Counted from the first letter of the stretch, positions 1 to 15,310 are shown. The stretch: 46,408 nt of DNA from a virus (IMGVR_UViG_2740892219_000006); one strand, 5' to 3'. The notes: generated by a model not told the origin, from the letters alone. Translations and numbers: made by a program.

Positions 1-30
1 GCTTTTAGCAACAATCGCGGTTTAGAAAGT

Positions 31-585
31 ATGCAATATGGTTATGCGAGGGTGTCAACTTTTGACCAGAATTTGGAATTACAACTGGAGGCGCTCAGGA
101 GTTCAGGATGTGACCGGATTTTTGAAGATAAAATATCCGGTGCTAAATCAAAACGACCAGGACTTGATAAGCTACTGAAGGTGTTACGGCCGGGCGATAC
201 GGTTATTGTCTGGAAGCTGGACCGAATGGGGCGTTCTCTGATTCATCTTGTTGATTTACTAAACTATTTTTTATCAAACAACATTGAGTTTATTTCGATT
301 ACGGAAGGGATAAAAATTAGCACTTCAATTGGCCGCTTTGCCTACACGATGCTGAGTGCAGTCGCAGAGATGGAGCGGGAAAATATGATTGAGAGAACGC
401 GTGCAGGATTGGCGGTGGCAAGGGCTAACGGCAGGATAGGAGGACGCCGCTCAAAATTGGCACCAGAGCAATGGGAACAGATCGGAAGGCTTATTGCGAA
501 TGGTGTTTCACGTAAGCGGATAGCGATTATCTTCGATGTTACCTTATCCACGCTTTACCGCAGGTTTCCGGCTGGGAATCATTGA
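31..585 (+). CDS. Serine DNA invertase (Hin/Gin/Cin/Pin family)
   Basis: 184-aa ORF; N-terminal GYARVST catalytic-serine motif and overall resolvase/invertase pattern with C-terminal HTH; size typical of tail-fibre invertases. Confidence 0.9.
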   Translation: MQYGYARVSTFDQNLELQLEALRSSGCDRIFEDKISGAKSKRPGLDKLLKVLRPGDTVIVWKLDRMGRSLIHLVDLLNYFLSNNIEFISITEGIKISTSIGRFAYTMLSAVAEMERENMIERTRAGLAVARANGRIGGRRSKLAPEQWEQIGRLIANGVSRKRIAIIFDVTLSTLYRRFPAGNH

Positions 586-715
586 CTGGAGTTAGGCCAG
601 TAGTATGATGCTCGCAAAACGAGATCCAATTTAGATCCTTTTACTGGTGGATTATCGTTCGATCAGTGAGAGACTTCGTGCATGACCGAAAGTGTTGTGG
701 TAGAGTTCTCTTAAA

Positions 716-730
716 ACCACGTAACGTGGT
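716..730. promoter_or_regulatory. Operator-like palindrome ACCACGTAACGTGGT upstream of the repA leader
   Basis: Perfect 5-N5-5 inverted repeat lying between a possible -35 and a TATGAT -10 (731-736); same motif class as the sites between the divergent repressor and cro-like genes. Confidence 0.45.
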
Positions 731-780
731 TATGATTGTGGGTGTCTGGTTGGAAACTGACCAGATATGGAAACAAAAAG

Positions 781-806
781 CCCGCAGATAAATCTGCGGG
801 CTTCTT
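781..806 (-). terminator. Stem-loop with U-tract on the minus strand; possible terminator of a CopA-like antisense RNA
   Basis: GCCCGCAGA-TAAA-TCTGCGGGC hairpin; on the minus strand it is followed by CTTTTTGTTTCC; lies antisense to the repA leader as in IncFII copy control. Confidence 0.35.
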
Positions 807-897
807 GCGACATCCACGGAAAACCAACAACAATATCCATGGGCGCCTCGACAACTCCCATTATACGTTGGTTTTCCGTGGACGCAAGAGCGAACAT

Positions 898-1746
898 ATG
901 GATAGACCAATGCCGTCTCTACGTTCAGCTTACGTTTGTAATTTGTCGCCGGAGTTCCAGCCTCCAAAGCACCATACGCACAAGCTGCCGCTGGTGTTAT
1001 CTGATGCTTTACAGCGCATTAATGGGCGTGATCTTACGTGTGAGGTTGCGTTCTACGTTAATCAACCGTCAGAGCGGAAGCGCCGGATAAACGAGCATCG
1101 TCGTCGGGCGATTAATGCTGTGATCGCTGCGATTTTGCACCATGTAAACATCATTTCTAAGCGGGTTCTGGTTAGTGCTGAGGCGTTGGCTGATTTTTGC
1201 GGCCTGTCTACCGTATCCGAAGCTGGGAACAAGTCTATAACGCGCTGTACAAGGGCGTTGTCGCAACTGAAAGCGTTAGGTTTTATTGATTATGAACGTC
1301 GCTGGGATCGGGTGAATAAACAGTATTGGCCAGCGAAAATAGAGATTCGTGATCAACTGCTGGAAACCGTTGGTATTACTGAACAAGCATGGAGACGTGC
1401 GGTTAGCCAGAAACTTAATTACTTCAATGCGAAGAATAGCGAACGGCTTAAAAAAGCGATAACGGAGGCTGATTATAAGCGTATTGTTATTCAGGAGCAG
1501 ATGGAGAATGTATGGCGTCAGAGGAAGACGGCCAGAGAGATAAAGGCAAAACAGAAAGCAGCGGAGAGAGCTGCGCGTCTTGTTCGGGAAAAGGGAGAGG
1601 CCGAACTTCGTCATCAAATCACTAGAGAGGTTAGCCAGGAATTTGCTGATGGCATGTATCCTGGAGCTGACCTTGCATATTTACGATCCCTCGTTGAGCA
1701 GCGTTATAACAGGTTAAGAAAGACCTGGAAATCACTCCAACATTAA
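898..1746 (+). CDS. repA: Plasmid replication initiator RepA (IncFII RepA1-like)
   Basis: Translation contains SITRCTRALSQLKALGFIDYE and an HRRRAINAV block, recalled as matching IncFII RepA1 conserved regions; start placed at ATG 898 (about 283 aa) rather than the upstream alternative start of the ORF track. Confidence 0.75.
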   Translation: MDRPMPSLRSAYVCNLSPEFQPPKHHTHKLPLVLSDALQRINGRDLTCEVAFYVNQPSERKRRINEHRRRAINAVIAAILHHVNIISKRVLVSAEALADFCGLSTVSEAGNKSITRCTRALSQLKALGFIDYERRWDRVNKQYWPAKIEIRDQLLETVGITEQAWRRAVSQKLNYFNAKNSERLKKAITEADYKRIVIQEQMENVWRQRKTAREIKAKQKAAERAARLVREKGEAELRHQITREVSQEFADGMYPGADLAYLRSLVEQRYNRLRKTWKSLQH

Positions 1747-1749
1747 CCC

Positions 1750-2000
1750 TCCTGAATGATGAATCCGGTTTTACCGGAGGATTATCTACGTCGCAATAAA
1801 ATATCTGTTCAAAAAACAATCTGAATTAATTTTCTCTAAACCTGAACACAGCAAAAATATCGCCTTTACAGGCATCGGCTAATAAAGTTATCCACAGTTT
1901 TGATATGTATATGCAAATGGTTTTTTATAATAGATGCACTAAACAAATAAATGCAAAATCACTTTCTTTTATTAAGACTTTCTTTATTTAACTTACGCAG
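1750..2000. other. Putative plasmid replication origin: AT-rich tract with consensus DnaA box
   Basis: Strongly AT-rich region immediately downstream of repA; perfect TTATCCACA at 1888-1896. Confidence 0.45.
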
Positions 2001-2389
2001 GCTTTGCCTGTGAATATGTTCGCCCTTGCAGCGAGCTAAAGCTCGCGCCGGTTCGAGTCGCTACGCTCAAATATACCTCCTCCGGCACTTGCCGGAGGCA
2101 TGGAGCAGCCTGATCATCCTTTTCGAAACGGCGCGTTTCGAACTATACAAAATCAATTTATATAAGGCCGAAATAAGGCCTACGGCCGGGCTTTGCAGGA
2201 GGAAGGGGCGAGCCTTATCAATAAACGTCGATAAATACGCACACAGTAGCCATCAGAACGCGATAAAACGTAAGAAACATCATTTCCTATTAGACATAGA
2301 AAACTTATCTTATACGCAATGTAGTAAATTTCTATTGCCACATAGGAAAAGATTTCCTACCATCGTAGATATAATAAATGGAGATGGTT

Positions 2390-2677
2390 ATGGATAAAGA
2401 TACTGTTTTAAAAATGTTGAATCCGGCTTGTTTAAAAAAAGCGGATGAATGGGAATCTCCTACATGTGGAGAAGTTCGGGCAGTTATTGGCCTGACCGGA
2501 ATGAGCGGCTCGCAGTTGGCCAAAAAACTAGGCTTAAAAGATAGTCGCAATGTTCGCAACTGGCAGATGTTAAAGGAGTCCACATCCAGATCCAGCATTC
2601 CGTATGCAGCCTGGGCGCTGCTGTGTTACTTCGCTGGGTTAGGGTTAATCTTCATTGATGACAAAACAGATGTTTGA
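2390..2677 (+). CDS. XRE-family helix-turn-helix DNA-binding protein
   Basis: HTH-like segment LTGMSGSQLAKKLGLKDSRNVRNWQ; GGAG RBS before ATG 2390. Confidence 0.55.
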   Translation: MDKDTVLKMLNPACLKKADEWESPTCGEVRAVIGLTGMSGSQLAKKLGLKDSRNVRNWQMLKESTSRSSIPYAAWALLCYFAGLGLIFIDDKTDV

Positions 2678-2700
2678 AACATGCAAATATGAGGTTTGTT

Positions 2701-2964
2701 ATGGAACTTGTACGCAAAACACGCAAAGAGTTCTTGGACCTGTATCGCATGGGAGCTTTCACTTGTGTTGTGGCTACCCAGGACGAAGTGACAAAAAGCT
2801 GGCGGCTTTTTGCTCTCAATAAAAAAGGGATTGCCGTTTTCATTGAAAAAGCCCGTGGTGGTATCCGCGAATGGGCGGGATTGAATTATGTGGCTGATTT
2901 TTGCGCAGCTATGGGGATTCGTCGCTGGGAAGTCCATATGCCAGGAGTAAAGTCACAAAAATAG
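2701..2964 (+). CDS. Hypothetical protein (87 aa), co-oriented with the upstream HTH gene
   Basis: ORF with TGAGG RBS 7 nt upstream of ATG 2701; no recognised domain. Confidence 0.45.
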   Translation: MELVRKTRKEFLDLYRMGAFTCVVATQDEVTKSWRLFALNKKGIAVFIEKARGGIREWAGLNYVADFCAAMGIRRWEVHMPGVKSQK

Positions 2965-3140
2965 GGCTTTCGCGTCGAAAATGAGGCGAAACTGAAAACG
3001 AGATTTCATTAACAAATAAGCAACATAAAAAACGGTGGAAAACGCCCAGGAAAACATGATCTTTTGAGCGGATTTTTTAGATCCGACAATGAACGGTGAT
3101 CCGGTGGTGCCGATAACGTCCATTATGTTAAATAGCCCCG

Positions 3141-3200
3141 TTTTTCTTGAAATTATAACCTACGGGTTATATAGTTAGTGATATAAACTACAGGTTATAG
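3141..3200. promoter_or_regulatory. Tandem palindromic operators upstream of the toxin-antitoxin operon
   Basis: TATAACCTACGGGTTATA and ATAAACTACAGGTTAT, two related inverted repeats spaced about 40 bp apart just before the toxin start. Confidence 0.5.
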
Positions 3201-3208
3201 GATTGATC

Positions 3209-3556
3209 ATGTGGACGGTACTTTTTAGCCAGCGATTTGACGACTGGCTAAATGAGCAAGAAGACGCTCTTCAGGAAAAGGTTTTGGCTGATTTGAAAAA
3301 TCTACAGGTTTACGGACCTGAGTTACCCAGGCCATATGCCGATACCGTAAAAGGTTCTCGGTACAAAAATATGAAAGAGCTTCGCGTTCAGTTTTCTGGC
3401 CGTCCGATAAGAGCCTTTTATGCGTTCGATCCGATTCGCCGGGCCATCGTTCTTTGTGCAGGAGACAAAAGTAACGATAAGCGGTTTTATAAAAAACTGG
3501 TGCGTATAGCTGAGGATGAGTTTGCAGCACATCTGAACACACTGGAGAGCAAGTAA
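3209..3556 (+). CDS. RelE/ParE-superfamily toxin (HigB/Gp49-like)
   Basis: 115-aa protein with the pattern recalled for HigB-like toxins (RVQFSGRPIRAFYAFD...AIVLCAGDKSNDKRFYKK); toxin-first order followed by an overlapping XRE antitoxin. Confidence 0.75.
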   Translation: MWTVLFSQRFDDWLNEQEDALQEKVLADLKNLQVYGPELPRPYADTVKGSRYKNMKELRVQFSGRPIRAFYAFDPIRRAIVLCAGDKSNDKRFYKKLVRIAEDEFAAHLNTLESK

Positions 3557-3855
3557 TGAGAACATTAGATGAGGTGATTGCCAGCCGTTCACCGGAAAGC
3601 CAGGCGCGAATTAAAGAAATGGCAGATGAGATGATTCTTGAGGTCGGCTTGCAGATGATGCGTGAAGAACTCCAGTTATCACAAAAACAGGTTGCTGAAG
3701 CGATGGGTATAAGCCAGCCAGCAGTAACAAAGCTGGAGCAGCGCGGAAATGATTTAAAGCTGGCGACGTTAAAGCGTTACGTTGAAGCTATGGGAGGCAA
3801 ATTAAGCCTGGATGTTGAGCTTCCCACAGGAAAGCGAGTAGCGTTCCATGTCTAA
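3556..3855 (+). CDS. XRE-family HTH antitoxin (HigA-like)
   Basis: 99-aa protein with HTH LSQKQVAEAMGISQPAVTKLE; start overlaps the toxin stop (TAATG). Confidence 0.75.
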   Translation: MRTLDEVIASRSPESQARIKEMADEMILEVGLQMMREELQLSQKQVAEAMGISQPAVTKLEQRGNDLKLATLKRYVEAMGGKLSLDVELPTGKRVAFHV

Positions 3856-3862
3856 CATAATG

Positions 3863-3890
3863 TAAGGCCCCATTGGGGCCTTACTTATTT
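3863..3890. terminator. Hairpin terminator between convergent genes
   Basis: TAAGGCCCC-ATTG-GGGCCTTA stem-loop followed by a T-rich tract. Confidence 0.55.
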
Positions 3891-4173
3891 ACTTACCATT
3901 TTTGCGGTTTTTTTCGGACTTCATAAGCTGGCTAACGCGCCCTGGTGTGATATTTAACATGCGGCTTACTTCAGCTTGTGATCCTACTTCCTCTACTAGC
4001 GATGCAACATAGCGAGATTTTCCTGAGGAGGTTAATCCATTATATGTTGCTCGTGCGACTTTTCCCTGAGCTTCTCTCATATCAACTAATGCCTGAGCAA
4101 CCTGCTCAAAACCTTTAATTGTTACTTCTGTTAATGCTTGAATAGCATCAATTTCAGATTTTGGTTTAGCCAT
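3889..4173 (-). CDS. Small DNA-binding protein with C-terminal HTH
   Basis: 94 aa from ATG 4173 (GAGG RBS 8 nt upstream); C-terminal SRMLNITPGRVSQLMK resembles an HTH. Confidence 0.45.
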   Translation of the reverse strand: MAKPKSEIDAIQALTEVTIKGFEQVAQALVDMREAQGKVARATYNGLTSSGKSRYVASLVEEVGSQAEVSRMLNITPGRVSQLMKSEKNRKNGK

Positions 4174-4331
4174 TTGGTACCTCAAATTGTTTAAAATGTG
4201 TTAATTACAAAATTCAGCCGATACCATGTTCAATGGTATAGCATTGCTGAAATGTCTTTTTCAAGACCTTGCCAATAAGCTAAACAAAAATGTTTAATGC
4301 TTCGCCTAAAAAAACACCAGTCACTATTGTT

Positions 4332-4440
4332 TATATAATTATAGATTTATATAAAAAGTGCTTTACGGGTGGAAAAAAATTTCCTAAGGTTATACCCGAA
4401 ACCGAGCGATACCCGCCCTGGTTAAACCGGAGATAACCCG
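4332..4440 (+). promoter_or_regulatory. Conserved promoter/leader/RBS cassette, copy A (includes the AT-rich 22-bp motif)
   Basis: About 109 bp nearly identical to 14027-14134 and 21124-21233: AT-rich motif, TTTACG-N17-TAAGGT promoter-like hexamers, conserved leader and GGAG RBS directly before the ATG. Confidence 0.55.
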
Positions 4441-4821
4441 ATGAGCATGATTAAAATCCGCAAAAACGCTTTCCTTAAAATTCAAACTATCCTGGCTGGT
4501 TCTGTTGGCGTGATTTGCCGTTCTTCTTCAAGCCGCATCGATGACGGCTACGATGATGAGTATCGTGTGTCCTCGTGCGATGAGGCTTTAACCTGGCTGA
4601 AGGAGAATCAGGAACGTGCCCAGGTATATCTGGAAACAGAGAACGGCAATCAGATGCTGCGTATTAGCGGTCGTTATGGATTTGAAACTACATTCATGGC
4701 CTATTTTAATCAGGCTTACTTTGACAAGGAGTTGGCCTGGTACACTGATCGCATGAGCAAAAGCGAGCCAGCCCCGATTACACCGCCGAACAATAAACCA
4801 TTTTTATTCCTCGTTAAGTAA
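4441..4821 (+). CDS. Hypothetical protein (126 aa)
   Basis: ORF directly driven by cassette A; no recognised domain. Confidence 0.5.
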   Translation: MSMIKIRKNAFLKIQTILAGSVGVICRSSSSRIDDGYDDEYRVSSCDEALTWLKENQERAQVYLETENGNQMLRISGRYGFETTFMAYFNQAYFDKELAWYTDRMSKSEPAPITPPNNKPFLFLVK

Positions 4822-4884
4822 ACACAATGCGTAAAGTGTCATTTTGACACTTTGCGAGTGTTAATATTGTGCGAGGAGGGTGCT

Positions 4885-5157
4885 ATGACGGGTTATGAAT
4901 TGAAATTATGGCGTCGTGGGATGAACTGGACGCAGGAGCGAGCCGCCGAAGAATTTGGGATATCGTTGGCTACATATAAGCGATATGAGAAGGGGGAGCC
5001 GCCGAGGGTCATTGAGATGGCCATTCGCGTTCTGTCGTTTGACGATATGGTGAAGGATCTTTCACACCTTGATAAAGACGCGATTCTGTTAAGGCTGCAA
5101 ACCCTTGTATGGGAAAAGGTTAAAGTGTCGTCAGAATTGGAACAAGGGATCAAATGA
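4885..5157 (+). CDS. XRE-family HTH protein
   Basis: HTH-like LKLWRRGMNWTQERAAEEFGISLATYKRYE; GAGGAGGG RBS before ATG 4885. Confidence 0.5.
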   Translation: MTGYELKLWRRGMNWTQERAAEEFGISLATYKRYEKGEPPRVIEMAIRVLSFDDMVKDLSHLDKDAILLRLQTLVWEKVKVSSELEQGIK

Positions 5158-5205
5158 TCCTTTACGGATCGTTTTATGGTGGTGTAATGTAAGCGCCAGA
5201 AAGAC

Positions 5206-5231
5206 AAAAACCGCCTTGCCGGGCGGTTTTC
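5206..5231 (+). terminator. Intrinsic terminator-like hairpin
   Basis: AAAACCGCC-TTGCCG-GGCGGTTTT immediately after the 4885-5157 gene. Confidence 0.5.
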
Positions 5232-5924
5232 AGTCTGAAATTTAAATCTTGCTTGGTAGGCTGGATTTAAAAAGACACCTCTTGATTGGGGCGGCTTTCT
5301 TGCGTCTAAAGATAATCAAATCTTTTTGCGCCTGCAACCCCTTTTTTACTGGTGCCCATTTCAGACTCACGCTCGCGTCGTTGTCTTTGCCACTTCGTTG
5401 GGTTCGGTGTTTTTGGGCGAAGTGGCGCGCGGGTATGCGTACAAGGGGAAAGTGTGCTGACGCAAGCCAGGAACAGCGATCTAAACTAAGTCGAGTCTGA
5501 GAAAGGCAGGAGTGCGACAACTCGCCTGTGCTCTATGAGCAGAAGAAGGTATATCAGACGACCAATGGCATGATTGTGGGCCACAGGGCGCACACGGCGG
5601 CGAAGCATTGGAAACGATGTGGAGCTATCTGGTGGCATGAGTTCCGGTACTCGATCTCGAGCTTTTTTTGATGCTTTTGAGAAGGGGCCGGAACTCCGGT
5701 AAAGGGCACCCTGTATGGGGGGAGGGGGGGGTGTGTCTGAAGGGTGGTTATCGGTTATGGTGGAATTATGATGCGTAGAAAAGCGAGTTTGCTGCAAGCT
5801 ATTGGGTCCATTATTTCTTTGTTTCCGGCAGTTGATCATTTTCGTCATATGGCGACGCGTTCCAGTATGGGCTTGGCGCGTGATGCTGACGCTATTCGAA
5901 AGGATTTTCAGAACGTCTCTGGCG

Positions 5925-5962
5925 TTGATAAGAGAGAAAAGAGTAAGGGGCCGTAGCCCCTT
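5925..5962 (-). terminator. Intrinsic terminator downstream of the antirepressor gene (minus strand)
   Basis: AAGGGGC-CGTA-GCCCCTT hairpin followed on the minus strand by CTCTTTTCTCTCTT. Confidence 0.6.
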
Positions 5963-5966
5963 GTAG

Positions 5967-7112
5967 TTATGGTCTGCTTTTCTGTGCCAGCTTATCAGCA
6001 CATGTTTTTATCAGATCCTGTAGTGTCCTGGCTGGCAGGTTTGCATCCAGAACGCTGAGTATGCTGTTGTGATCAGCCTGGTCGACTACTTTGCCTGTCG
6101 GTGGTAGTAGCTTGAGCTGAGGATTCAGGTTTTCGTCAAAGCTGATAAGTGCTCTGGCGTTTCTGAGCAGATCAAGAAGTAAGGCTGATATCACATTTTC
6201 CTGAGTCATTGCTGGCAGATTTAGCGTCGCTTTGGTTTTCCCTGTTGCCTTGTCAAACTCCTTGATTAGTTCCTTCCTGTAGTTCGGTTCCGTTAATAGC
6301 CGATTATGCTCTGTTGCCGCGCGGATAATCGTTTTTTCCTGGTACAGTCGTTTAGCCAGATCGCGCTCGTACTGTGTTTTTAACACGCTGCTGATAGCGT
6401 TAAAGGCTTCAATGTAGGCCAGCTTGATATCCTTCACGCCTGGGCCGTCGATACTTTCCATGAGCAAGGTAAATCCGTCTTTTGTCATGCGATAGATTGT
6501 TATTTCGCGGTCGCTTCCTTCCAGCGGTCGTTGCTCTTTAAAGAAATGACGTGCCGCAGCCGTGCGAGGAATGCGTAGCGCATCGATGGCCATAACGATG
6601 GAATTGTTTGTGGTGCTGAATGCCTGGGCAACATCGGCTGAGGTTGTGAGTGGCTCGTTGTTGCACACCTTAATGTAAAACATCGGTTTGGCGTTGAGCG
6701 TATCGACAACCTCACGAGCATTGTTTGGCGAGACGGTAACGGTCGCGGCCGTTTGCGCGTTCTGGTTGAAGTAGCAGTCTTCCAGCCGTTCGAACACATC
6801 CCACGCTTGGTTAGTTTCAAGCATTTTGGCGTGACGTGCAGCCCCGCGTTCTGTCCAGAGGATGAGGGAGCGGACTTTAGGTGAAACTGGATTTTGTGAG
6901 TAGTTTAAAGCTACCCGCAATTCTTTAAGGTCATTACCAACAACTTTGAAAAAGTGTTTCCCTTCAACGAAACGTACTTTGTTCTCATGATGATTCTGGC
7001 GAATACGCACCGGCTCAGTGCCGTAAAGCTGTGCCAGTAACTCGGTAGTAATGACAGGGATTTGGTTATGCAGGATAGGCTGTAGGGTGTTAACGGTCGG
7101 AAGCGTTTTCAT
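5967..7112 (-). CDS. Phage antirepressor (ORF6N-type N-terminal domain plus Rha-like domain)
   Basis: 381 aa; N-terminal ELLAQLYGTEPVRIRQNHHENKVRFVEGKHFF is recalled as ORF6N/Ant-like; central region ITIYRMTKDGFTLLMESIDGPG..IKLAYIEAFN is recalled as Rha-like. Confidence 0.7.
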   Translation of the reverse strand: MKTLPTVNTLQPILHNQIPVITTELLAQLYGTEPVRIRQNHHENKVRFVEGKHFFKVVGNDLKELRVALNYSQNPVSPKVRSLILWTERGAARHAKMLETNQAWDVFERLEDCYFNQNAQTAATVTVSPNNAREVVDTLNAKPMFYIKVCNNEPLTTSADVAQAFSTTNNSIVMAIDALRIPRTAAARHFFKEQRPLEGSDREITIYRMTKDGFTLLMESIDGPGVKDIKLAYIEAFNAISSVLKTQYERDLAKRLYQEKTIIRAATEHNRLLTEPNYRKELIKEFDKATGKTKATLNLPAMTQENVISALLLDLLRNARALISFDENLNPQLKLLPPTGKVVDQADHNSILSVLDANLPARTLQDLIKTCADKLAQKSRP

Positions 7113-7300
7113 TTTGTACCTCCCATAACTACTTTGGTTACGAGGGAGATTTTTGCGTCAGAAACAGTGTTATCGTTGCTGGCGATGCGCATAGCTTCGC
7201 GCTCGATGATTTCAGCCAGGCGGAATTTATCGGCGTATGAGGCTTTCTTGAGAAGGATCTTTACGAGGTTGACGTAATAGTCATGGGGTAGGTTTGTCAT
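7109..7300 (-). CDS. Small protein (63 aa) translationally coupled to the antirepressor
   Basis: ATG 7300 with GGAGAT RBS; stop overlaps the antirepressor start. Confidence 0.45.
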   Translation of the reverse strand: MTNLPHDYYVNLVKILLKKASYADKFRLAEIIEREAMRIASNDNTVSDAKISLVTKVVMGGTK

Positions 7301-7594
7301 TGTGATATCTCCGATTAAAGGAACTATCACCACCAATGACGCCAATCAATATGGTGGTGAGACGTACAGGGTTGGCGTAACCGGCACAATGACAAACCCG
7401 GCGCGGATTTCTCCGCCCCCGCACGCCCCACCATAATTTGGGTGTAGCAGTGCTTTACGCATAAAAAAACCGCTAACGCGGTATGCGCCATTGTGCAATC
7501 GGGACGCCAATCCCGACCGTAGATTTTGCTACGGCTCGGAAAGTGTCCACCAATGGCGCATTCATGTCAATACGGCGGGATTTTAACAGAGACA

Positions 7595-7609
7595 ACCACA
7601 TAGCGTGGG
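7595..7609. promoter_or_regulatory. Operator-like site ACCACATAGCGTGGG upstream of the antirepressor operon
   Basis: 14/15 match to the ACCAC-N5-GTGGT palindrome. Confidence 0.35.
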
Positions 7610-7680
7610 TTTGAAAAACGGAATTTTCTGCTCATTAAGCGCATGATTTGACCAATCAAATTTGTTTGATACTGAATTTT

Positions 7681-7806
7681 GGGAATCTAATGTGAATGTA
7701 AGGAACCTTAACGTGAGTGTTGGGAACTTAACGTGATTTATTGTTGAAAAAAGTTGCTTTGCATCCAATTTTTTGGATATGATTTGAATGTAGGGAACTT
7801 CATTGT
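7681..7806. promoter_or_regulatory. Direct-repeat array (GGGAAC-TTAACGTGA-like, 3-4 copies) plus palindrome ATCCAATTTTTTGGAT in a putative promoter
   Basis: Repeats at about 7681, 7700, 7720 and 7790; the 16-bp palindrome at 7763-7778 sits between TTGCTT (-35-like) and TATGAT (-10-like). Confidence 0.45.
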
Positions 7807-7869
7807 ATTGGATGTGGTTTCTTTTGAGAATGGAAATTGGTAGTGAATTTAATGCAGAGGAGGTAAAAA

Positions 7870-8442
7870 ATGACTGAACTGTCAAAAAACTCATGTTTTT
7901 CAACAATTCACCTAATGATCATAAAAGAACTTAGGCTAGAAAGAGGTGTGCATCAAGGAGTGCTGGCCCAAGCGGCTGGAAAAACACCAAACGCATGGAC
8001 AAAGATAGAGAACGGGCAGTCTGTATTAACGGTTGATGCTCTTTTTGGTGCTTGCTCTGCCCTTAATATTAGCCCAATGAATTTCATGTTGTTGGTAGAA
8101 AAACTGATTCCCGAATTTAATCGCTGTGGTTACTACTTTTTCCCGGGAACAATCGATCAGGACGAGGATAACCTTTTGCCTCTGATGCTGAGTTACTTCA
8201 ACAGCAAGGGGTTTGAAGCATTGAGAAATAGGCCATTCGAAAGAATTAGCATTAGCTCAATGGGATTCTCATTTGGGGGCGGCTTCCCTGTTACTCCAAC
8301 TGCTGTAATGTATTGTTGCGATGAAGCATATAGACATTGGGTCGATAACGGTGCTGATATGGATAATCGAGATTATCTGGAGTCATCAACAGGTCTTGGA
8401 CGGTTTTTAATGAGTGAAGAAACAAAAAAACCGCCCTATTGA
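7870..8442 (+). CDS. XRE-HTH regulator with C-terminal domain of unknown function
   Basis: 190 aa; N-terminal HTH (LAQAAGKTPNAWTKIENGQ); unrecognised C-terminal about 110 aa; GAGGAGG RBS. Confidence 0.55.
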   Translation: MTELSKNSCFSTIHLMIIKELRLERGVHQGVLAQAAGKTPNAWTKIENGQSVLTVDALFGACSALNISPMNFMLLVEKLIPEFNRCGYYFFPGTIDQDEDNLLPLMLSYFNSKGFEALRNRPFERISISSMGFSFGGGFPVTPTAVMYCCDEAYRHWVDNGADMDNRDYLESSTGLGRFLMSEETKKPPY

Positions 8443-8847
8443 GGACGGTTCTTTCGTGCTGATCGGATTCGCGGTCCTTTCAGCATTACGTTGTTGTATA
8501 AACAACCACGCAAGCACAAGCAGCAAGTTGATTTTACCCAAAAGGTAATAATAGTCCACTATTATGCTTCAAAAAATTGTGGTTCTTGTTGTGTCTGCAA
8601 ACTCACAGATTGTGGGTAGGTTACTGATTTTGTGAAAATAAACTGGTTTTTTCGTTTAATTTATTTCCTATTACTAATCTTAAAATAATCGTAAAATACC
8701 TGTGGACCTTCCCGCCGATTCGCACCCGGGCACCGACTTTAGGGGAGGATTTCCTGTTGCCGTACATGCAAGCACAAGCAGCCGTGCTTGCTCTCGCGTT
8801 GTTTTCGTCGGTGGGGATGCCGTGAAACGGCCTGTAAGGGCCATACA

Positions 8848-8970
8848 ATGAAAAAATACTGTATGTGTATTTTTATCGTTGTTACTGGGGCTTTGTTTAC
8901 GCCACATGGGGAGGGTTGGAAGATTACTGATAACGCTCTGAATGTGACGATAAACATTAGCAGCAAGTAG
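8848..8970 (+). CDS. Possible small hydrophobic peptide (40 aa)
   Basis: MKKYCMCIFIVVTGALFT signal-like N-terminus; immediately followed by a strong terminator; weak RBS. Confidence 0.25.
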   Translation: MKKYCMCIFIVVTGALFTPHGEGWKITDNALNVTINISSK

Positions 8971-8975
8971 CGATT

Positions 8976-8998
8976 AGGCCCCTTCGGGGGCCTTTTTT
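8976..8998 (+). terminator. Rho-independent terminator
   Basis: AGGCCCC-TTCG-GGGGCCT followed by TTTTTT. Confidence 0.7.
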
Positions 8999-9008
8999 AT
9001 GGTTGAAT

Positions 9009-9158
9009 TTAAACGCTGGAGCGCATTAAGCCTTTCAGAACTGCTTCACGTACCCATTCTGGCCTGGTGGATAGCAGGGCAAATAAGCGGCCAGCTTGCA
9101 GCCGTTTGAGGTCTATTAGACGAGTTTTTAGTAACCGTGTATATTGTTGCTCGGACAT
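9009..9158 (-). CDS. Small hypothetical protein (49 aa) downstream of parG
   Basis: ATG 9158 with AAGGGG RBS; no recognised domain. Confidence 0.3.
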   Translation of the reverse strand: MSEQQYTRLLKTRLIDLKRLQAGRLFALLSTRPEWVREAVLKGLMRSSV

Positions 9159-9220
9159 AACAAATTCCCCTTGTTGTGTCGCGACGGCCAACAGTTGGCG
9201 CTGGAGGCCGTCACCTTCTC

Positions 9221-9469
9221 TTACTTCTGGTTGTATTGAGCCTTAAGTAACTCAAAAGATTTTGTCAGCACTTCTTTCAATGACATATCCATTGAGCTGG
9301 CGAACGTTTTGTACTCGCGTTTAAATTCAGGGTCGACGTTAAACGCCATTTGTGCCCCACCTGATTTGGTTCTGGTTGGCGTTTCAGTCGGGTCGAAAAC
9401 CTGCGGTTGTTCGATCGATGGCGGTACGCCTTTGCTGTTCTTCTTTGGTGGTTTTGATGGTGCGGCCAT
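9221..9469 (-). CDS. ParG-like ribbon-helix-helix centromere-binding protein
   Basis: 82 aa directly downstream of parA; basic, probably disordered N-terminus and an RHH-like C-terminus (MAFNVDPEFKREYKTFA...); AGAGGGG RBS. Confidence 0.55.
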   Translation of the reverse strand: MAAPSKPPKKNSKGVPPSIEQPQVFDPTETPTRTKSGGAQMAFNVDPEFKREYKTFASSMDMSLKEVLTKSFELLKAQYNQK

Positions 9470-9482
9470 GTGTATCCCCTCT

Positions 9483-9512
9483 TATATAAATCTATAAAAC
9501 TATAATTATATA
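9483..9512. repeat. AT-rich 22-bp motif copy (TATATAAATCTATA / TATAATTATATA) between parA and parG
   Basis: Member of the dispersed motif family also found at 4331, 10191, 10265, 14019, 15231, 15281, 19977 and 21116. Confidence 0.5.
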
Positions 9513-10166
9513 TTACGCGGCAGTAGTCAGAGCCTCAAGCTGGTTGATAATCCCCTGAATAACGTCGTCTGCCTTTTTGCGTGGCGCAACGTATGAGCAC
9601 TCAATGAGGCTTAAGCCCTTATCCTGAGCTTTGCTCAGAGCTGGCTTGTGGGGAATGTACTTATCGACAACAAAGTATGGCGTATTAGCCAGGTACTCTT
9701 GGGCTTCAATATAGTCAGCTTCGTTTTCAGCCGCGCCGGAAAACACCATGCAAATTTTCTTGATTGGTACACCCTTTTTAACGATGCCGTGAGCTGTGTT
9801 AACGGTGGTTTCCAGGTCATCGGTAGAGAATCTGGTTGGCAAAATAACCATATCCAGAAATTCAGAGAGCTTCGGTACTGATTCAGATGCGTAGGCACCG
9901 CCATCGACGATAACCAAGTCGTATACTTCTGATTCGATGATTTTCTGGACTTGTGATGGTGTGCCGCACGGCTGCGCCGCGATTGCTGGTTCGATATTGT
10001 TGGCCATTCTGCGTTGTACCCAACGCGTTACCGTTCCGTTAAGCACATCCATATCGATCAGGCATACATTCCAGCCAGCCTTTGCATAAGCAACTGCTAA
10101 AGCACGGGCAATTGTTGATTTGGTTACGCCGCCTTTTCCGTTGAAAATACCTACAGAGATAGTCAT
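9513..10166 (-). CDS. parA: ParA-family partition ATPase (small type Ib ParA/ParF-like)
   Basis: Deviant Walker A GKGGVTKST near the N-terminus; about 217 aa; start placed at ATG 10166 (GGAG RBS). Confidence 0.8.
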   Translation of the reverse strand: MTISVGIFNGKGGVTKSTIARALAVAYAKAGWNVCLIDMDVLNGTVTRWVQRRMANNIEPAIAAQPCGTPSQVQKIIESEVYDLVIVDGGAYASESVPKLSEFLDMVILPTRFSTDDLETTVNTAHGIVKKGVPIKKICMVFSGAAENEADYIEAQEYLANTPYFVVDKYIPHKPALSKAQDKGLSLIECSYVAPRKKADDVIQGIINQLEALTTAA

Positions 10167-10190
10167 TTGTCGAGACTCCATGTGTTTGAT

Positions 10191-10294
10191 TATATAATTC
10201 TATAAATCTATATTTATAGAACGAGGTAAGCATAACCAACTTTTTGGCGGATGAAAAGCGTTTTATATAATTATATAAATCTATAATCATATAA
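10191..10294. repeat. Centromere/operator-like AT-rich iterons upstream of parA
   Basis: Two direct copies of TATATAATT-TATAAATCTATA about 70 bp apart (10191-10220 and 10265-10294) in the parA promoter region. Confidence 0.5.
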
Positions 10295-10316
10295 GCGGGC
10301 GTTAGCCCGCTTGCAG

Positions 10317-10691
10317 TCAGAGGTCAGCTATCGTTGATATCAGTTGATTTGCTAGCTGTCGCTGTTTACGTGAGAGGGTTAGAGCAGCTTCTGAGCGGTC
10401 GCTAAGAGGGGTGTTTTCATCGAGAATCATGAGGCATACAGAAATAATAGCTCTGTTATATGCCATCAATGGCTGGCACAGCTTCGATACCGCTGGCACA
10501 TCGTATTGTAAGGCCGTTTTGAGGCAGATTTTTTGTTCTGATGCCAGATGAAGGATAGATTCTATCCAGTCGATATCTTTCTCATTATCAATGATTTGGC
10601 ATAACATACACTCAATCGCTATGTTCAACGCTTGGATTTCGATTCCAGCAGTGATCAGAGTTTCGTTTTTATTGGCTGTATGTAATTCCAT
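10317..10691 (-). CDS. Hypothetical protein (124 aa) downstream of the repressor gene
   Basis: AAGAGG RBS 7 nt upstream of the ATG; no recognised domain. Confidence 0.45.
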   Translation of the reverse strand: MELHTANKNETLITAGIEIQALNIAIECMLCQIIDNEKDIDWIESILHLASEQKICLKTALQYDVPAVSKLCQPLMAYNRAIISVCLMILDENTPLSDRSEAALTLSRKQRQLANQLISTIADL

Positions 10692-10726
10692 GCGTAGCCT
10701 CTTTTATACTTTTACATGTTGTCAAA

Positions 10727-10741
10727 ACCACAAAATGTGGT
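10727..10741. promoter_or_regulatory. Operator-like palindrome ACCACAAAATGTGGT (followed by a T-run)
   Basis: Perfect ACCAC-N5-GTGGT between the repressor gene and the next gene; could also act as a terminator hairpin. Confidence 0.45.
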
Positions 10742-10783
10742 TTTTTTGAGCGTAGAAATGCACGGCTTCCGCCGTGCTGTGTA

Positions 10784-11440
10784 TCATAACCAGTTGACAA
10801 CACTAACTACGCGGCCAAGAACTTTATAACGCTTAAATTCCTCATTATTCAGATGCTTAGTGTTCATTTCAGCATCCCTTTCGGTTGACAGCATAACAGC
10901 ATTGTCACCCGGTATGACTCTACAGTGCCTCAAAACAACCAGGCCATTTCTGTCTTCAAGGGCATAGATCCCCTCATGAATCTCTGTATCGTCTGTATTA
11001 ATCAGGACTTGGGAGCCAGGGGATATTGTTGGTGACATTAACTCATCGTTGCTCTGGAGAACTGACAGAGACGATGGGTTGATGTTCTTGCTTCGTAGAA
11101 TCTCCTGTTCTATCGCCAGCACTGGCTTTTCTCCGGCGTGCGATGCTATGTCATTTTTTATAGCTACAAGCCCAGGAATAACAGGAGCGTTAGTATTCTG
11201 GGGTGGGAACGGGTTATCTGTTAAGCACGCGATATAAGGCGCTGATGCTTTCAGGGCGTGCGCGATTTTCTTGATGGCAGGTATAGATGGTTGTCTTAAT
11301 CCGGCCTCATAGTTCTGCAAGGTGCTTAAGCCTATTCCAGTGACTTGCTGGAGATCTCCGGCAGTCATGCCGGATTGTTTCCGTAGAGTCTGAATGCGCA
11401 GACCTATTTCTTTCTTGATGTTCTCGTCGTTGCTTTTCAT
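10784..11440 (-). CDS. CI-like prophage repressor (N-terminal HTH, C-terminal S24 LexA-type peptidase domain)
   Basis: 218 aa; HTH near the N-terminus (LQQVTGIGLSTLQNYEAG); C-terminal region with lambda CI/LexA-like architecture. Confidence 0.85.
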   Translation of the reverse strand: MKSNDENIKKEIGLRIQTLRKQSGMTAGDLQQVTGIGLSTLQNYEAGLRQPSIPAIKKIAHALKASAPYIACLTDNPFPPQNTNAPVIPGLVAIKNDIASHAGEKPVLAIEQEILRSKNINPSSLSVLQSNDELMSPTISPGSQVLINTDDTEIHEGIYALEDRNGLVVLRHCRVIPGDNAVMLSTERDAEMNTKHLNNEEFKRYKVLGRVVSVVNWL

Positions 11441-11477
11441 GTCTCATCAATCGTGAATGGTGGGTTATTTATACATT

Positions 11478-11595
11478 ACCACATTTAGTGGTTTTCACAT
11501 GGTAAGACGAGAGGTGGACCACAAATAGAAGGTTATTTTTTGTTTTGCTCATTGAAAAACTCACGATATGTGGTTTTAATACCACGTATCGTGGT
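11478..11595. promoter_or_regulatory. Immunity control region: three ACCAC-N5-GTGGT operators with divergent promoters
   Basis: Sites at 11478-11492, 11560-11574 (one mismatch) and 11581-11595; rightward promoter TTGAAA (11552-11557), 17 bp, TTTAAT (11575-11580) overlapped by two operators. Confidence 0.6.
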
Positions 11596-11614
11596 TTTAA
11601 CTGGAGTTCGTTAA

Positions 11615-12109
11615 ATGACCTTTCAGGAGTGGGTTGACGAAAATGGAGGCCAAATTGGTGTTGCCAGAAAGTTTGGCTTTACGTCATCACTGATTGGTGC
11701 CTGGTATCGCTTCGAGAGATTCCCTCGTGCGGATAACCTGACGCTGCTGGTGGCGTATTCGGAAGGCCGGATTAACGTCCAGCAATGGGCGGCAGATTTT
11801 GCCGAACGTCAGCGCCAGCGTAGCGATGGCACATCGGTTCGGCAGAACAAGATCAAAGGGAATCTCCCTGTTAACTGCTTATCAAGGCTGAAAGCGGTTT
11901 TCTCTGAGTTGGGGATGCCTGCGGAGCGTTGCAATCTACGCGGTCCGCGATTCATTGCTCGCTGGAAACACTCACACGTAACCGTTTCAGAGGTTCGTGA
12001 TGCGATTACCGTGCTGGAGCTTAAGAATAAAGATTCCAGCGATATCGAGCTGATTCATAAGGAGATTAGCAACGCCCGGCGTTCAGCACTTGGGAGGCTT
12101 GAGGAATGA
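11615..12109 (+). CDS. Cro-like HTH protein with C-terminal extension
   Basis: First gene of the rightward operon; N-terminal GGQIGVARKFGFTSSLIGAWY resembles a Cro/YdaS-type HTH. Confidence 0.5.
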   Translation: MTFQEWVDENGGQIGVARKFGFTSSLIGAWYRFERFPRADNLTLLVAYSEGRINVQQWAADFAERQRQRSDGTSVRQNKIKGNLPVNCLSRLKAVFSELGMPAERCNLRGPRFIARWKHSHVTVSEVRDAITVLELKNKDSSDIELIHKEISNARRSALGRLEE

Positions 12110-12621: not shown

Positions 12622-12851
12622 GTAGTTATGTTCGCGGTGCTGCGATGCATTGCCAGAATCCCCAATTCTGGCGCTTTCTGACCAGTAAAACAGGGAAGAA
12701 CATTTCAAACAGTTCTGAGGCCTCTGTGATTCTGCGTGAGTTTTGCGGGATCTCATCCCGTAAAGAGCTGGCAAAGAACTACGCGGCCAGAAGCATGTAT
12801 GTCCAGTTAATCAACGAGTTCAACCTCTTTATCAATGGTAAGGGGCGCTGA
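12618..12851 (+). CDS. Hypothetical protein (77 aa)
   Basis: Translationally coupled ORF in the early operon. Confidence 0.4.
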   Translation: MSSYVRGAAMHCQNPQFWRFLTSKTGKNISNSSEASVILREFCGISSRKELAKNYAARSMYVQLINEFNLFINGKGR

Positions 12852-13255
12852 TGAACGGACGTACGCCAACGAAGAAAGAGAAACTTTATATACAAGCGGT
12901 GCTCACTCACGTGGGTTGCATAGCTTGCATTATTGATGGCCGTGAAATTGAGAATCCAGAGCTGTGGACGGAGCTACATCACGATCCTGATTACGGCAGC
13001 GTTGATGAGAATTGCCACTTCCATAGCTTTGGGTTGTGCGCACCACATCATCGCGGTGTTGTGCCTGGTGGTGGGCGCGTGCCTCCGCATATTGCCGTTC
13101 GTCACCCTCCCCTGAGTAATTGTGCTCGCTTTGTTGAGCGTTATGGCACCGATGAATTTTTGTGTGCGCAGACGTGGGAGCTGTTGCCGCAGTCAGTTAA
13201 AGACGAAATTGGGTTTGATCTTAGTCTTGGTGAAGTACCAGGGGATACCAAATGA
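12851..13255 (+). CDS. Ref-like HNH-type nuclease (recombination enhancement function family)
   Basis: GRTPT...GCIAC...LHH...LC..HH pattern recalled from P1 Ref. Confidence 0.5.
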   Translation: MNGRTPTKKEKLYIQAVLTHVGCIACIIDGREIENPELWTELHHDPDYGSVDENCHFHSFGLCAPHHRGVVPGGGRVPPHIAVRHPPLSNCARFVERYGTDEFLCAQTWELLPQSVKDEIGFDLSLGEVPGDTK

Positions 13256-13584
13256 GATATACCGGCTTTCGCAAACCAGCGACCAGGAAAAGCAAATACG
13301 GCAATAAAAAAACGGTTGTCGATGATATCGCTTTTGATAGCAAAAAAGAGGCTGATTACTACTGCGAACTGAAGCTACTGAGAAAAGCTGGCCGCGTTGT
13401 GACGTTTCTTATGCAGGTGCCTTTTCATCTGCCAGGTGGTGTCGTTTATAAACTTGATTTCATGGTGTTTTATGACGATGGGACGATTGATTGTGTCGAC
13501 ACTAAAGGTGTGCGAACAGACGTCTACATCATGAAGAAAAAGCAGGTAGAGGCGCTTTATCCCGTCACGATACGGGAGATCTGA
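13252..13584 (+). CDS. DUF1064-like protein (putative PD-(D/E)XK-type nuclease / resolvase-like)
   Basis: N-terminal KYGNKKTVVDDIAFDSKKEADYY matches the remembered DUF1064 signature. Confidence 0.45.
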   Translation: MRYTGFRKPATRKSKYGNKKTVVDDIAFDSKKEADYYCELKLLRKAGRVVTFLMQVPFHLPGGVVYKLDFMVFYDDGTIDCVDTKGVRTDVYIMKKKQVEALYPVTIREI

Positions 13585-13587
13585 ACA

Positions 13588-13965
13588 GTGAGACGCGATC
13601 TGGATAGCTTGTTTGAGCTATGGGCGCTGTGGGTGCGCAATGGCTGCAACGCCCGTAGCGGTTTCGCGTCGATGTTAGAAATGATGATGGTTACGCGTTG
13701 CCAGTTTACCGGAGGGGGCGGCGCACCAAATGACTCACTGGAAACCAGTATCGAGGGAGCGGTGACGGCCCTCACGGTAGTTGATGAGACTGCGGCGCTG
13801 GTTGTCCGAATTGAATACGGGGCGTGGGAGATTCGGGGCCTCGACATAAATGCACCGCATATTGATAAAGCCCACGCCCTTTCTCTTAGTCTCAGACAGT
13901 ATCGCCGGAAGCTGGCAAAAGCCAGGGCGTATGTTGTCGACTATTTGAAAAAGCGAAGAGAGTGA
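13588..13965 (+). CDS. Possible Q-like antiterminator (small prophage Q-family)
   Basis: 125 aa; LFELWALWVRNG resembles the LERWGAWA motif recalled for a small Q-like family; GTG start. Confidence 0.35.
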   Translation: MRRDLDSLFELWALWVRNGCNARSGFASMLEMMMVTRCQFTGGGGAPNDSLETSIEGAVTALTVVDETAALVVRIEYGAWEIRGLDINAPHIDKAHALSLSLRQYRRKLAKARAYVVDYLKKRRE

Positions 13966-14026
13966 AAGTGTCATTTTGAGCTGTTTTGATAGTGTGTAGA
14001 CATCGGGAACATCGAAAATCTATAAA

Positions 14027-14134
14027 TATATAATTATAGATTTATATAAAAAGTGCTTTACAGGTGGGAAAAAATTTCCTAAGGTTATACCCGAAACCGA
14101 GCGATACCCGCCCTGGTTAAACCGGAGAAATCTG
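14027..14134 (+). promoter_or_regulatory. Conserved promoter/leader/RBS cassette, copy B
   Basis: Near-identical to 4332-4440; ends at ATG 14135. Confidence 0.55.
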
Positions 14135-15202
14135 ATGAATAAACAAGTAATTATTTCTGACTGGATCAACAACCCTAACAGCCTGTTAAGCACTGATACT
14201 GGCTACCTATTACGCCATGTTAATGGTCGTATGGTCAAAAGCGATGAGCACGAAACCTTTTTCTTTGTTGAAGACGATGGGCGCATCTATGAGGATGGTT
14301 ACTCTTATGAAGCCCAAACAGGTTGTATCCCTGCGGAGCTGGTGGACGTAACAGAAGAGCTGCGCAAAGCATGGCTTGAACAGCAGCAGCGCGGAGATGA
14401 TTACGTAAATACCTATCAGGAACGCCAGAACGCGCGTCTTGCCCGATATATTGCTCGTGCAGAAAAAGCCAGAAAAGAAGGAGCGGTAGCGCATAAGCGA
14501 GCGCATGACCTGTTGGATGTGATCCCGTTAGGCCAGCCGATTTTAGTTGACCATTATAGCGCGAAAGGCCATCGCCGCCGTTTGTCTAAAGCTGATGCGT
14601 TATTCAGAAAAGCGTTTGTTGAATGCGAAAGTAAAGCATCACACTACGAGAGCAAAGCCGCAGGTGTTGGTCGTAATGGAATTTCGTCTGATGATCCTGA
14701 TGCGCTATTTAAGTTGCTTCGTAAGCTGCAAGGCTGCATGAAGTCACACGTCAAAATGAAGGCCGCAAATAAGGCCATTCGCAAATACAAAAAAGACCAA
14801 TTACAGCAGCTTTCTGCATTAATCGATCTCAGGTTTACAGAAAGCGAAGCCAAAGAGTTACTGGCCGGAGATTTCTGTGGGTGCATCGGATTCCCTTCAT
14901 ACGCACTGAGCAACAATAACGCCGCAATCAAACGACTACAGAGCCGTATTAAGGAGCTTGAATCGGTCAAGTCTGTAACAGGAGCACAGCGCGAAGAATA
15001 CGACGGCTTTTCTATGGAGATAGATCCAGAGGATAACCGCATCCTGTTTTATTTCCCTGGCAAACCAGAGGCAAACATTCGTTCGCTGCTTAAATCACGC
15101 GCCTTTAAGTGGAGTCCAACCCGTAATGCATGGGTTCGCAAGATTACTCCAAACGCCCTGGCTGATGCCCGATATCTAAAAGAATCGCTATTGAAAGCCT
15201 GA
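14135..15202 (+). CDS. Conserved hypothetical protein (355 aa; possibly DUF3560-like)
   Basis: Long ORF driven by cassette B; the C-terminal half resembles a remembered plasmid/phage DUF3560 pattern, unverified. Confidence 0.55.
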   Translation: MNKQVIISDWINNPNSLLSTDTGYLLRHVNGRMVKSDEHETFFFVEDDGRIYEDGYSYEAQTGCIPAELVDVTEELRKAWLEQQQRGDDYVNTYQERQNARLARYIARAEKARKEGAVAHKRAHDLLDVIPLGQPILVDHYSAKGHRRRLSKADALFRKAFVECESKASHYESKAAGVGRNGISSDDPDALFKLLRKLQGCMKSHVKMKAANKAIRKYKKDQLQQLSALIDLRFTESEAKELLAGDFCGCIGFPSYALSNNNAAIKRLQSRIKELESVKSVTGAQREEYDGFSMEIDPEDNRILFYFPGKPEANIRSLLKSRAFKWSPTRNAWVRKITPNALADARYLKESLLKA

Positions 15203-15212
15203 CAGTAAGCCT

Positions 15213-15310
15213 ACGGCGGGACGTCTCCCCCCGTATATAGAATTATATATTTATATAAATAACGGCGGGACGTCTCCCGCCGTATATAGAATTATATATT
15301 TATATAAATG
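15213..15310. repeat. Tandem duplication (2 x 49 bp) of a GC hairpin fused to the AT-rich motif
   Basis: ACGGCGGGACGTCTCCCGCCG palindrome followed by TATATAGAATTATATATTTATATAAAT, present twice in tandem; first copy has one stem mismatch. Confidence 0.6.

Follow-up and report, generated by a model that had tools for sequence, protein, structure and literature searches.

Phage-plasmids must reconcile two replication regimes, and the viral sequence IMGVR_UViG_2740892219_000006 raises the question of how this might be done: does the immunity repressor of the prophage, acting through a palindrome that recurs at the lysis-lysogeny switch and at the promoter that drives repA, the gene for plasmid replication, control both? 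We refer to the whole stretch of 46,408 nucleotides as the window and count positions from its first base. Based on motif statistics and comparison with relatives, the 15-bp palindrome ACCAC-N5-GTGGT is supported as an operator of the element's own immunity system, and we consider it likely that a 218-amino-acid CI-like repressor gates both repA and the lytic switch. That the copy at 716 is a functional operator of the phage repressor is held with greater confidence than this mechanism in its entirety. Such an arrangement would couple copy control to the lysis-lysogeny decision, as an original prediction made from the sequence alone had proposed.

Bases 1-12000 of the window are ~97% identical in Megablast searches to ~48-kb circular, non-mobilizable E. 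coli plasmids, for example the ATCC 25922 plasmid NZ_CP009073, and also match three Yersinia pestis myophages, vB_YpM_39/41/44. The window is therefore a phage-plasmid, an E. coli/Yersinia element of ~48 kb that is circular and encodes a myovirus-type tail. PLSDB holds about 60 complete plasmids of this family, one of them in the reference strain ATCC 25922. A literature search returned no paper on regulation in this phage-plasmid family or on vB_YpM_39/41/44.

A motif search of the whole window located exact copies of ACCAC-N5-GTGGT at 716-730, 10727-10741, 11478-11492 and 11581-11595, including the two that the original prediction had placed at the repA promoter and downstream of the repressor gene. 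The four copies compare with 0.05 expected per window, and four were reached in none of 100 shuffles. With its A/T flanks, the consensus extends to AAACCAC-N5-GTGGTTT. The prediction had further counted three copies in the divergent control region beside the repressor gene; the copies at 11478 and 11581 are exact, but the third, at 11560-11574, is degenerate and matches at only 13 of 15 positions, so that the count was overstated. The 14/15 match reported at 7595-7609, ahead of the antirepressor operon, is as claimed.

A symmetric 23-nt weight matrix was built from the other five sites as they occur in four lineages, with the 7595 site left out, and compared with 200 first-order Markov shuffles of the window. 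Scores of the training sites are 22-32 bits. The 7595 site, although absent from the training set, ranks sixth in the window at 19.6 bits, a score reached in 1 of the 200 shuffles; the next candidates, at 18208 (14.3 bits) and 8602 (12.2 bits), follow at some distance, and the mean shuffle maximum is 9.0. The matrix scan that had been proposed as a check thus bears out the excess of the motif over shuffled sequence. All six sites (716, 7595, 10727, 11478, 11560 and 11581) lie between open reading frames (ORFs), four of them no more than 900 bp from the repressor gene. Other one-mismatch matches, at 23383, 41199 and 45229, score below 6 bits on the extended matrix and were set aside as chance occurrences, as was a pair at 23362/23383 with 21-bp spacing, which falls in coding sequence or scores low.

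The gating of repA draws its support from comparison with relatives. Three Salmonella plasmids are 69-75% identical to the window in both the repA and immunity regions, and a Klebsiella aerogenes contig encodes a RepA that is 82% identical. Across relatives at 69-84% identity, variation is seen in the N5 spacers and flanks, and the half-sites stay constant at repA, 3' of the repressor gene and in the switch. The repA copies of E. coli, Salmonella and Klebsiella have the same half-sites around the spacers GTAAC, GTTGT and GATGC. The 10727 site is kept in Salmonella as AAAACCAC...GTGGTTTT between completely diverged, unalignable flanks, and its spacer occurs in four variants (AAAAT, AAATC, AAAGC and GAAAC). 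In the switch, the 11478 site (O3) does not vary among the E. coli and Salmonella relatives; O2, at 11560, has a conserved right half-site and a left half that reads CTCAC or CCCAC in relatives; and O1, at 11581, keeps its half-sites (GTGGG in Salmonella) around a variable spacer. Among eleven close E. coli/IMG/VR copies, the half-sites of the 716, 10727 and 11478 operators carry zero substitutions.

A search with the RepA protein led to a lineage with 60% identity, in which one Citrobacter freundii contig, L014, spans the whole syntenic block of tail genes, repA, repressor and 164-amino-acid gene. The L014 repressor has 30% overall identity and differs little in the recognition helix (RSTIQNYEAG versus LSTLQNYEAG), and its immunity gap carries TTGTAGT/ACTACAA half-sites in place of GTGGT. 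TGTAGT/ACTACA occurs eight times in the 20.8 kb of this contig: five of the occurrences fall within the immunity gap or at its edge, one is at the OL-like position and one is at repA. The repA site there, ACTACAAAACGTAGC (ACTAC-N5-GTAGC), lies 10 nt after the conserved TGnTAGAGT and has the third position changed in both half-sites, and the homologue of the 10727 site keeps GTAGT. Three more contigs of the Citrobacter-type RepA lineage carry the same repA site, and no ACTAC-N5-GTAGT site, even with one mismatch allowed, is present in the window. In this comparison the repA site appears to track repressor specificity, covarying with the element's own immunity operators, and this covariation is the strongest available evidence that the element's own repressor would read the repA site. 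Together with the spacer-only changes in the closer relatives, it leaves the predicted gating of repA by the repressor well supported.

The reach of the comparison is set by the available contigs. The RepA relatives L016, L017, L018 and L021 (59-82% identical) are on contigs that end before the immunity region, so that L014 is the only one to link both regions. In a tblastn search of PLSDB with RepA, the lineage did not extend beyond this phage-plasmid family; the next RepAs, at ~37% identity, are too far for promoter comparison. For the 124-amino-acid gene that neighbors the 10727 site, no relatives were found in the one-genome-per-species contigs, and IMG/VR holds only copies that are 95-99% identical, which are useless for covariation.

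Table 1. Operators, regulatory elements and neighboring genes in the window
Feature	Position	Strand	Evidence and remarks
Hin-type invertase	31-585		
P1, upstream promoter-like site	582-609	+	TTGACT-16-TATGAT, 10/12 consensus match
P2, predicted extended -10	698-706	+	TGGTAGAGT; TGnTAGAGT invariant in five aligned lineages, surroundings diverged
repA-promoter operator (predicted)	716-730		ACCACGTAACGTGGT, exact; 9 nt after the conserved TGnTAGAGT
CopA-like antisense RNA region (predicted), opposite the repA leader	765-900	-	Folding; two stem-loops, the second a terminator with U-tail
repA, IncFII-family replication initiator, 283 amino acids	895-1746	+	Probable start ATG at 895; Pfam IncFII_repA E = 9e-43; annotated RepA in relatives
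Toxin-antitoxin pairs			Among the genes around the operator sites
Antirepressor operon (small ORF and antirepressor)	5967-7345	-	
ORF6N/Rha-domain antirepressor	5967-7112	-	Pfam ORF6N 5.9e-20, Phage_pRha 4.7e-12; PHROG anti-repressor families
Small ORF of antirepressor operon, 78 amino acids	7109-7345	-	
c4 antisense RNA	7350-7438	-	Rfam C4 72.3 bits (gathering 45); directly upstream of the small ORF and antirepressor gene
isrK-like element	7463-7535	-	Rfam isrK 67.3 bits (gathering 50)
a1/b1 target region	7496-7548	-	Rfam c4-a1b1 41.7 bits, below gathering 46.7
Operator-like site	7595-7609		ACCACATAGCGTGGG, 14/15; just upstream of the c4-antirepressor leader; matrix 19.6 bits
Helix-turn-helix regulator, 190 amino acids	7870-8442		Divergent from the antirepressor operon
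ParA	9513-10181	-	
OL-like operator (predicted)	10727-10741		Exact; 3' of the repressor gene and its terminator, before the 124-amino-acid gene and parA operon
CI-like immunity repressor, 218 amino acids	10784-11440	-	HTH_3 and degenerate S24-like C-terminal domain
O3-like operator (predicted)	11478-11492		Exact; beside the start of the repressor gene, where it may mediate autoregulation of the leftward promoter
Half-degenerate site	11518-11534		ACCACAAATAGAAGGTT; between O3 and O2, conserved in Salmonella
O2-like operator (predicted)	11560-11574		CTCACGATATGTGGT, 13/15; in the spacer of the candidate rightward promoter
O1-like operator (predicted)	11581-11595		Exact; just downstream of the rightward -10, over the predicted transcription start
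First rightward gene, 164 amino acids, unknown family	11615-12109	+	Heads the rightward early operon

How the 716 site would act depends on the promoter it accompanies. It had been placed between the -35 and -10 elements of the repA leader, which is probably wrong: the TATGAT downstream of it (731-736) decays in relatives to TATGAA, TAAGAA or nothing recognizable, and the TGnTAGAGT upstream is invariant. We therefore infer an extended -10 promoter, P2, that starts near 713, and the operator would cover about +3 to +18 of it. P1, from which P2 is separated by a gap of ~90 nt, is conserved in Salmonella and Klebsiella relatives although the upstream genes differ, and is a candidate constitutive promoter of the repA leader in a position analogous to that of PcopB. 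No copB-like ORF was found: there is no plus-strand ORF of at least 50 amino acids between the invertase end (585) and the 716 site. Opposite the leader, the minus strand of 765-900 has a minimum free energy of -69.4 kcal/mol (z = -9.1 relative to shuffles) and a terminator hairpin that is conserved in relatives. Rfam reported no family above threshold for this region; its two stem-loops and U-tailed terminator are nevertheless the predicted hallmark of a CopA-type antisense RNA. Overall, the layout resembles that of plasmid R1 (PcopB, PrepA with its operator, and CopA), with the operator of the prophage repressor apparently occupying the CopB slot.

RepA is the only recognizable replication initiator in the window. 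Neither a helicase nor a primase nor an initiator was recognized by Pfam in the early rightward operon (12851-18372), which encodes a Ref nuclease, DUF1064 and DUF3560 proteins and ORFs of unknown function, followed by holin and lysozyme. RepA may thus also drive lytic replication, for which the absence of a Pfam match is weak evidence, and a repA operator would then have its purpose.

Three further observations concern the region upstream of repA. Just 3' of P1, at 623-638, lie paired GATC motifs (GATCCAATTTAGATCC) that are conserved in Salmonella and Klebsiella, with three GATC in the Citrobacter relative; they may reflect Dam/SeqA-sensitive control of the replicon. In L014, a perfect palindrome, ACGACGTGTTGTCGT (9146-9180), fills the spacer of an upstream promoter, TTGACG-16-TAGAAT. 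No such site is present in P1 of the window, and the Citrobacter lineage may control both repA promoters. On a conjugative plasmid with type IV secretion (L015, positions 8960-10852, from Logan SRR15533060), a RepA that is 63% identical has two small HTH_3 genes and an extended -10, TGAGTAGAAT, in front of it, with LexA-box-like palindromes at 8800-8816 and 9734-9750. It seems that different elements fill the operator slot before this RepA lineage with different regulators.

The second proposed target of the repressor is the antirepressor operon. Its c4 RNA, sub-threshold a1/b1 match and antirepressor correspond, as judged from the family matches, to the design of P1 immI and N15 immA, and a repeat, CCACCAATG(A/G)CGC, is present at 7330 and 7547. 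The position of the 7595 site relative to a promoter is ambiguous. If the promoter is an extended -10, TGTTAAAAT (7588 to 7580), the operator would lie at -36 to -22, and repression would therefore be expected. If it is TTGTCT-17-TATTGA, the operator would be centered near -42, as where lambda CI activates PRM. The consensus scan reported no promoter overlapping 7595. A statistically real site that is confined to the E. coli lineage is the plausible reading, and of the repressor input that had been proposed for this operon, the significance of the site has held up, whereas its presence is lineage-specific and its effect could be repression or activation.

Alternatively, the 7595 site could be a chance near-match or a relic, with the operon governed by the c4 antisense RNA only, as in relatives that lack the site. 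This is the likeliest of the alternatives, and we regard it as a serious possibility, though not the one we favor. The site has one mismatch and no overlapping consensus promoter, and Salmonella homology stops near 7572, ~20-25 bp before it. A score of 19.6 bits on a matrix built without the site is, however, hard to attribute to chance; its GTGGG half-site also occurs in Salmonella O1; E. coli and IMG/VR variants that differ in flanks and spacer still carry the half-sites; and the site falls in the spacer/-35 region of the possible extended -10 promoter.

The binder most likely to read all of these sites would be a dimer of the 218-amino-acid CI-like helix-turn-helix repressor. The protein matches Pfam HTH_3 at 4.5e-11 and the repressor family PHROG_4, and a PDB sequence search for a close homologue with known operator returned generic HTH_3 matches only. 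Its Peptidase_S24 match (18.4 bits) is below the cutoff of 23.3, and in a manual alignment the positions of the catalytic Ser and Lys of LexA and lambda CI read Leu and Arg in the repressors of all three lineages; it is probably non-cleaving. There are no LexA boxes near the antirepressor operon or the switch, and their count in the window is at chance level. Because the Ser/Lys dyad and an associated LexA box are both lacking, induction is expected to proceed via the antirepressor rather than by RecA-dependent cleavage. SOS control of the antirepressor itself, as for N15 AntC, is unsupported, since no LexA box is near.

In the switch region, the repressor gene is divergent from the early operon, whose rightward ORFs begin at 11615. 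The centers of O2 and O1 are 21 bp apart, and the rightward early promoter would have its spacer and start region covered by this pair; the 11478 site would act at the repressor's own promoter, and 10727 would be an OL-like site. The good rightward promoter said to underlie these operators has a plausible candidate, TTGAAA (11552) -17- TTTAAT (11575), spanning 11552-11580 and with a conserved -35, but the consensus scan did not report it. Several other roles and binders were considered and rejected. Intrinsic termination was rejected as the main role of 10727 and of the hairpin at 11561-11594: the stems are weak, nothing is transcribed rightward into 10727, and the O2 variants break pairing. 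The 190-amino-acid helix-turn-helix regulator was rejected as the operator binder because its gene is absent in Salmonella relatives that keep five of the sites.

A second alternative is that the operators are bound mainly by the 164-amino-acid protein in the Cro position, or by both proteins, with the repA and antirepressor sites acting in lytic growth. The lambda Cro and CI proteins share operators, and in the window the main operator cluster lies between the repressor and 164-amino-acid genes. The 164-amino-acid protein is conserved together with the repressor in every relative (at 42% identity in the Citrobacter one), and its N-terminus looks helix-turn-helix-like by eye. It belongs, however, to a family of unknown function (PHROG_7452) and has no Pfam match, to a helix-turn-helix or Cro family or any other, even at E = 5, and no PDB relative, so that the label cro-like that the gene had been given is unproven and reflects position only. 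By comparison, the HTH_3 domain of the CI-like protein is clear, and Cro of phiKO2 and PY54 binds OR3 alone and none of the repA operators (PMC4997575). We consider a leading role for the 164-amino-acid protein improbable.

We take the weakest alternative, that the 716 palindrome belongs to the IncFII-type replicon itself, for example as a leader RNA hairpin or as a site for some factor of plasmid or host, and resembles the immunity operators by chance or shared ancestry with no control by the repressor, to be very improbable: the whole 670-745 block is well conserved rather than the site alone, the palindrome as RNA could form a short hairpin, and RepA relatives on a conjugative plasmid carry small helix-turn-helix genes of their own upstream, but an exact 10-base match is expected only 0.05 times per window, substitutions at 716 are confined to the N5 spacer, the site becomes ACTAC..GTAGC exactly in the lineage with GTAGT immunity operators, no copB-like ORF lies between 610 and 700, and a 5-bp stem with three G-C pairs is weak for an RNA element.

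Several points weigh against control of repA and the switch by the CI-like repressor: (i) The promoter assignments at repA are consensus readings, and the consensus scan reported the upstream P1 alone. (ii) The 716 site is ~100 nt downstream of P1, and a repressor bound there would be a roadblock at best. (iii) The Cro-position protein could share or own the operator sites. (iv) Several early ORFs of no known function could conceal a lytic replication system. (v) The covariation amounts to one base per half-site in one relative with both regions on one contig. (vi) The L014 operators are less symmetric, and L014 O2 keeps GTGGT. (vii) The 7595 site was not found in Salmonella or Citrobacter relatives.

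With these points taken into account, the mechanism we propose is as follows. In the plasmid-prophage state, the CI-like repressor would keep the repA promoter P2 shut, which is the job of CopB on classical IncFII replicons, and P1 (582-609) would supply basal RepA, subject to the CopA-like antisense RNA. Inactivation of the repressor by the ORF6N/Rha antirepressor would derepress repA together with the early lytic operon, and replication would rise. In the E. coli lineage, the 7595 site would add a repressor input to the c4-antirepressor operon. A more far-reaching version, which we offer as speculation and think doubtful, is that the repressor took over the CopB slot, that a single RepA serves as both low-copy initiator and lytic engine, and that repressor bound at 7595 (near -42) activates the antisense RNA that silences the antirepressor, a positive loop that would lock lysogeny.

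This reading has consequences for a family that is widespread, occurring as E. coli plasmids and as infectious Yersinia phages. Mutating one 15-bp site should uncouple copy number from immunity, and incompatibility or immunity cross-talk is predicted between co-resident elements with the same repressor.

Some neighboring sequences merit description in their own right. The pattern ACCAC-N5-GAAGGTT, defined post hoc, occurs exactly twice in the window, at 11518-11534 and 18208-18224; both copies are intergenic and conserved in Salmonella, and the Citrobacter homologue of the first, ACTACAAAAAGTCGT, is more palindromic. For the second, which lies ahead of the holin gene in a 386-bp gap and is followed by a strong terminator (18326-18353), the layout resembles that of a late promoter with an antitermination leader. 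These sites may be half-operators or belong to another regulator. Where the antirepressor operon and the 190-amino-acid helix-turn-helix gene diverge, the direct repeats GG(G)AAC(C/T)TTAACGTGA and TGA(G/A)TGT(T/A)GGGAACTT (7702-7736, 7785-7800) are candidate operators of the 190-amino-acid regulator. Between that gene and the par operon is a match to ryfA RNA (8702-8998, plus strand; 143 bits, gathering 80), with partial repeats at 8507-8528 and 8952-8968. The block containing it may be a small toxin/antisense addiction locus, and the whole of 7573-9200 is missing from the Salmonella relatives.

Replication of R1/R100-type IncFII plasmids is controlled by the CopA antisense RNA, a leader peptide and CopB, the repressor of PrepA. 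Like R1, the window has an IncFII_repA gene, a long leader, a predicted and strongly structured antisense RNA with terminator, and a tandem pair of promoter-like sites, the second of them with a putative repressor operator. Unlike R1, it has no copB gene, and the slot after the extended -10 carries the prophage repressor motif; in addition, its RepA shares only ~37% identity with the closest RepAs from ordinary plasmids in PLSDB, and its antisense region has no Rfam CopA match.

Among phages, P1 has a C1 operator, Op51, at its immI c4-icd-ant operon, a parallel that speaks against reading the 7595 site as a relic. P1 C1 acts at 22 dispersed operators, one of which controls RepL (PMC8546580). 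The window shares with P1 the use of one immunity repressor with scattered operators, at replication and, as a candidate in the window, at a c4-governed antirepressor operon (PMC8546580), with binding in the window being predicted. In contrast to the repressor of the window, C1 is not of the HTH_3/S24 type, recognizes an asymmetric 17-bp operator and controls the lytic replicon repL rather than a plasmid RepA. The switch also differs from that of lambda in that no Cro family is recognized in the first rightward gene product.

The closest functional parallel is provided by N15, whose immA carries a c4/CA-RNA-type antirepressor module like that in the window. Like the N15 repressor CB, and unlike lambda CI, the repressor of the window is without self-cleavage residues in the manual alignment, and induction is expected via the antirepressor. 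In N15 and phiKO2, CB has three OR operators in immB and two OL operators that overlap the repA promoter; through the latter, CB represses repA and reduces copy number, and Cro is not bound at them (PMC4997575). As in those phages, an immunity operator sequence is found at the repA promoter of the window, at one site ~10 kb from the repressor gene as opposed to two adjacent OL sites, and with the 15-bp ACCAC-N5-GTGGT sequence as opposed to a 16-bp operator of the TA-N10-TA type. N15 and phiKO2 are telomere phages, whereas the plasmid in the window is circular and encodes a myovirus-type tail and a Hin-type invertase. The RepA proteins differ as well, the large primase-helicase type in N15 compared with a 283-amino-acid IncFII-family protein, accompanied by a CopA-like antisense RNA, in the window. 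Because the latter is a Pfam IncFII_repA protein, the resemblance to N15 repA control is functional and not by descent.

Repressor control of a plasmid replication gene is thus an established principle from N15 and phiKO2, and no existing concept is overturned. What is different here is the IncFII-like, antisense-controlled replicon, the operator sequence, the single distant site and the apparent replacement of CopB. N15 places prophage-repressor operators on its replication gene, and the same logic on an IncFII-type replicon, apparently evolved independently, suggests that this is a general solution to the problem of reconciling the two replication regimes.

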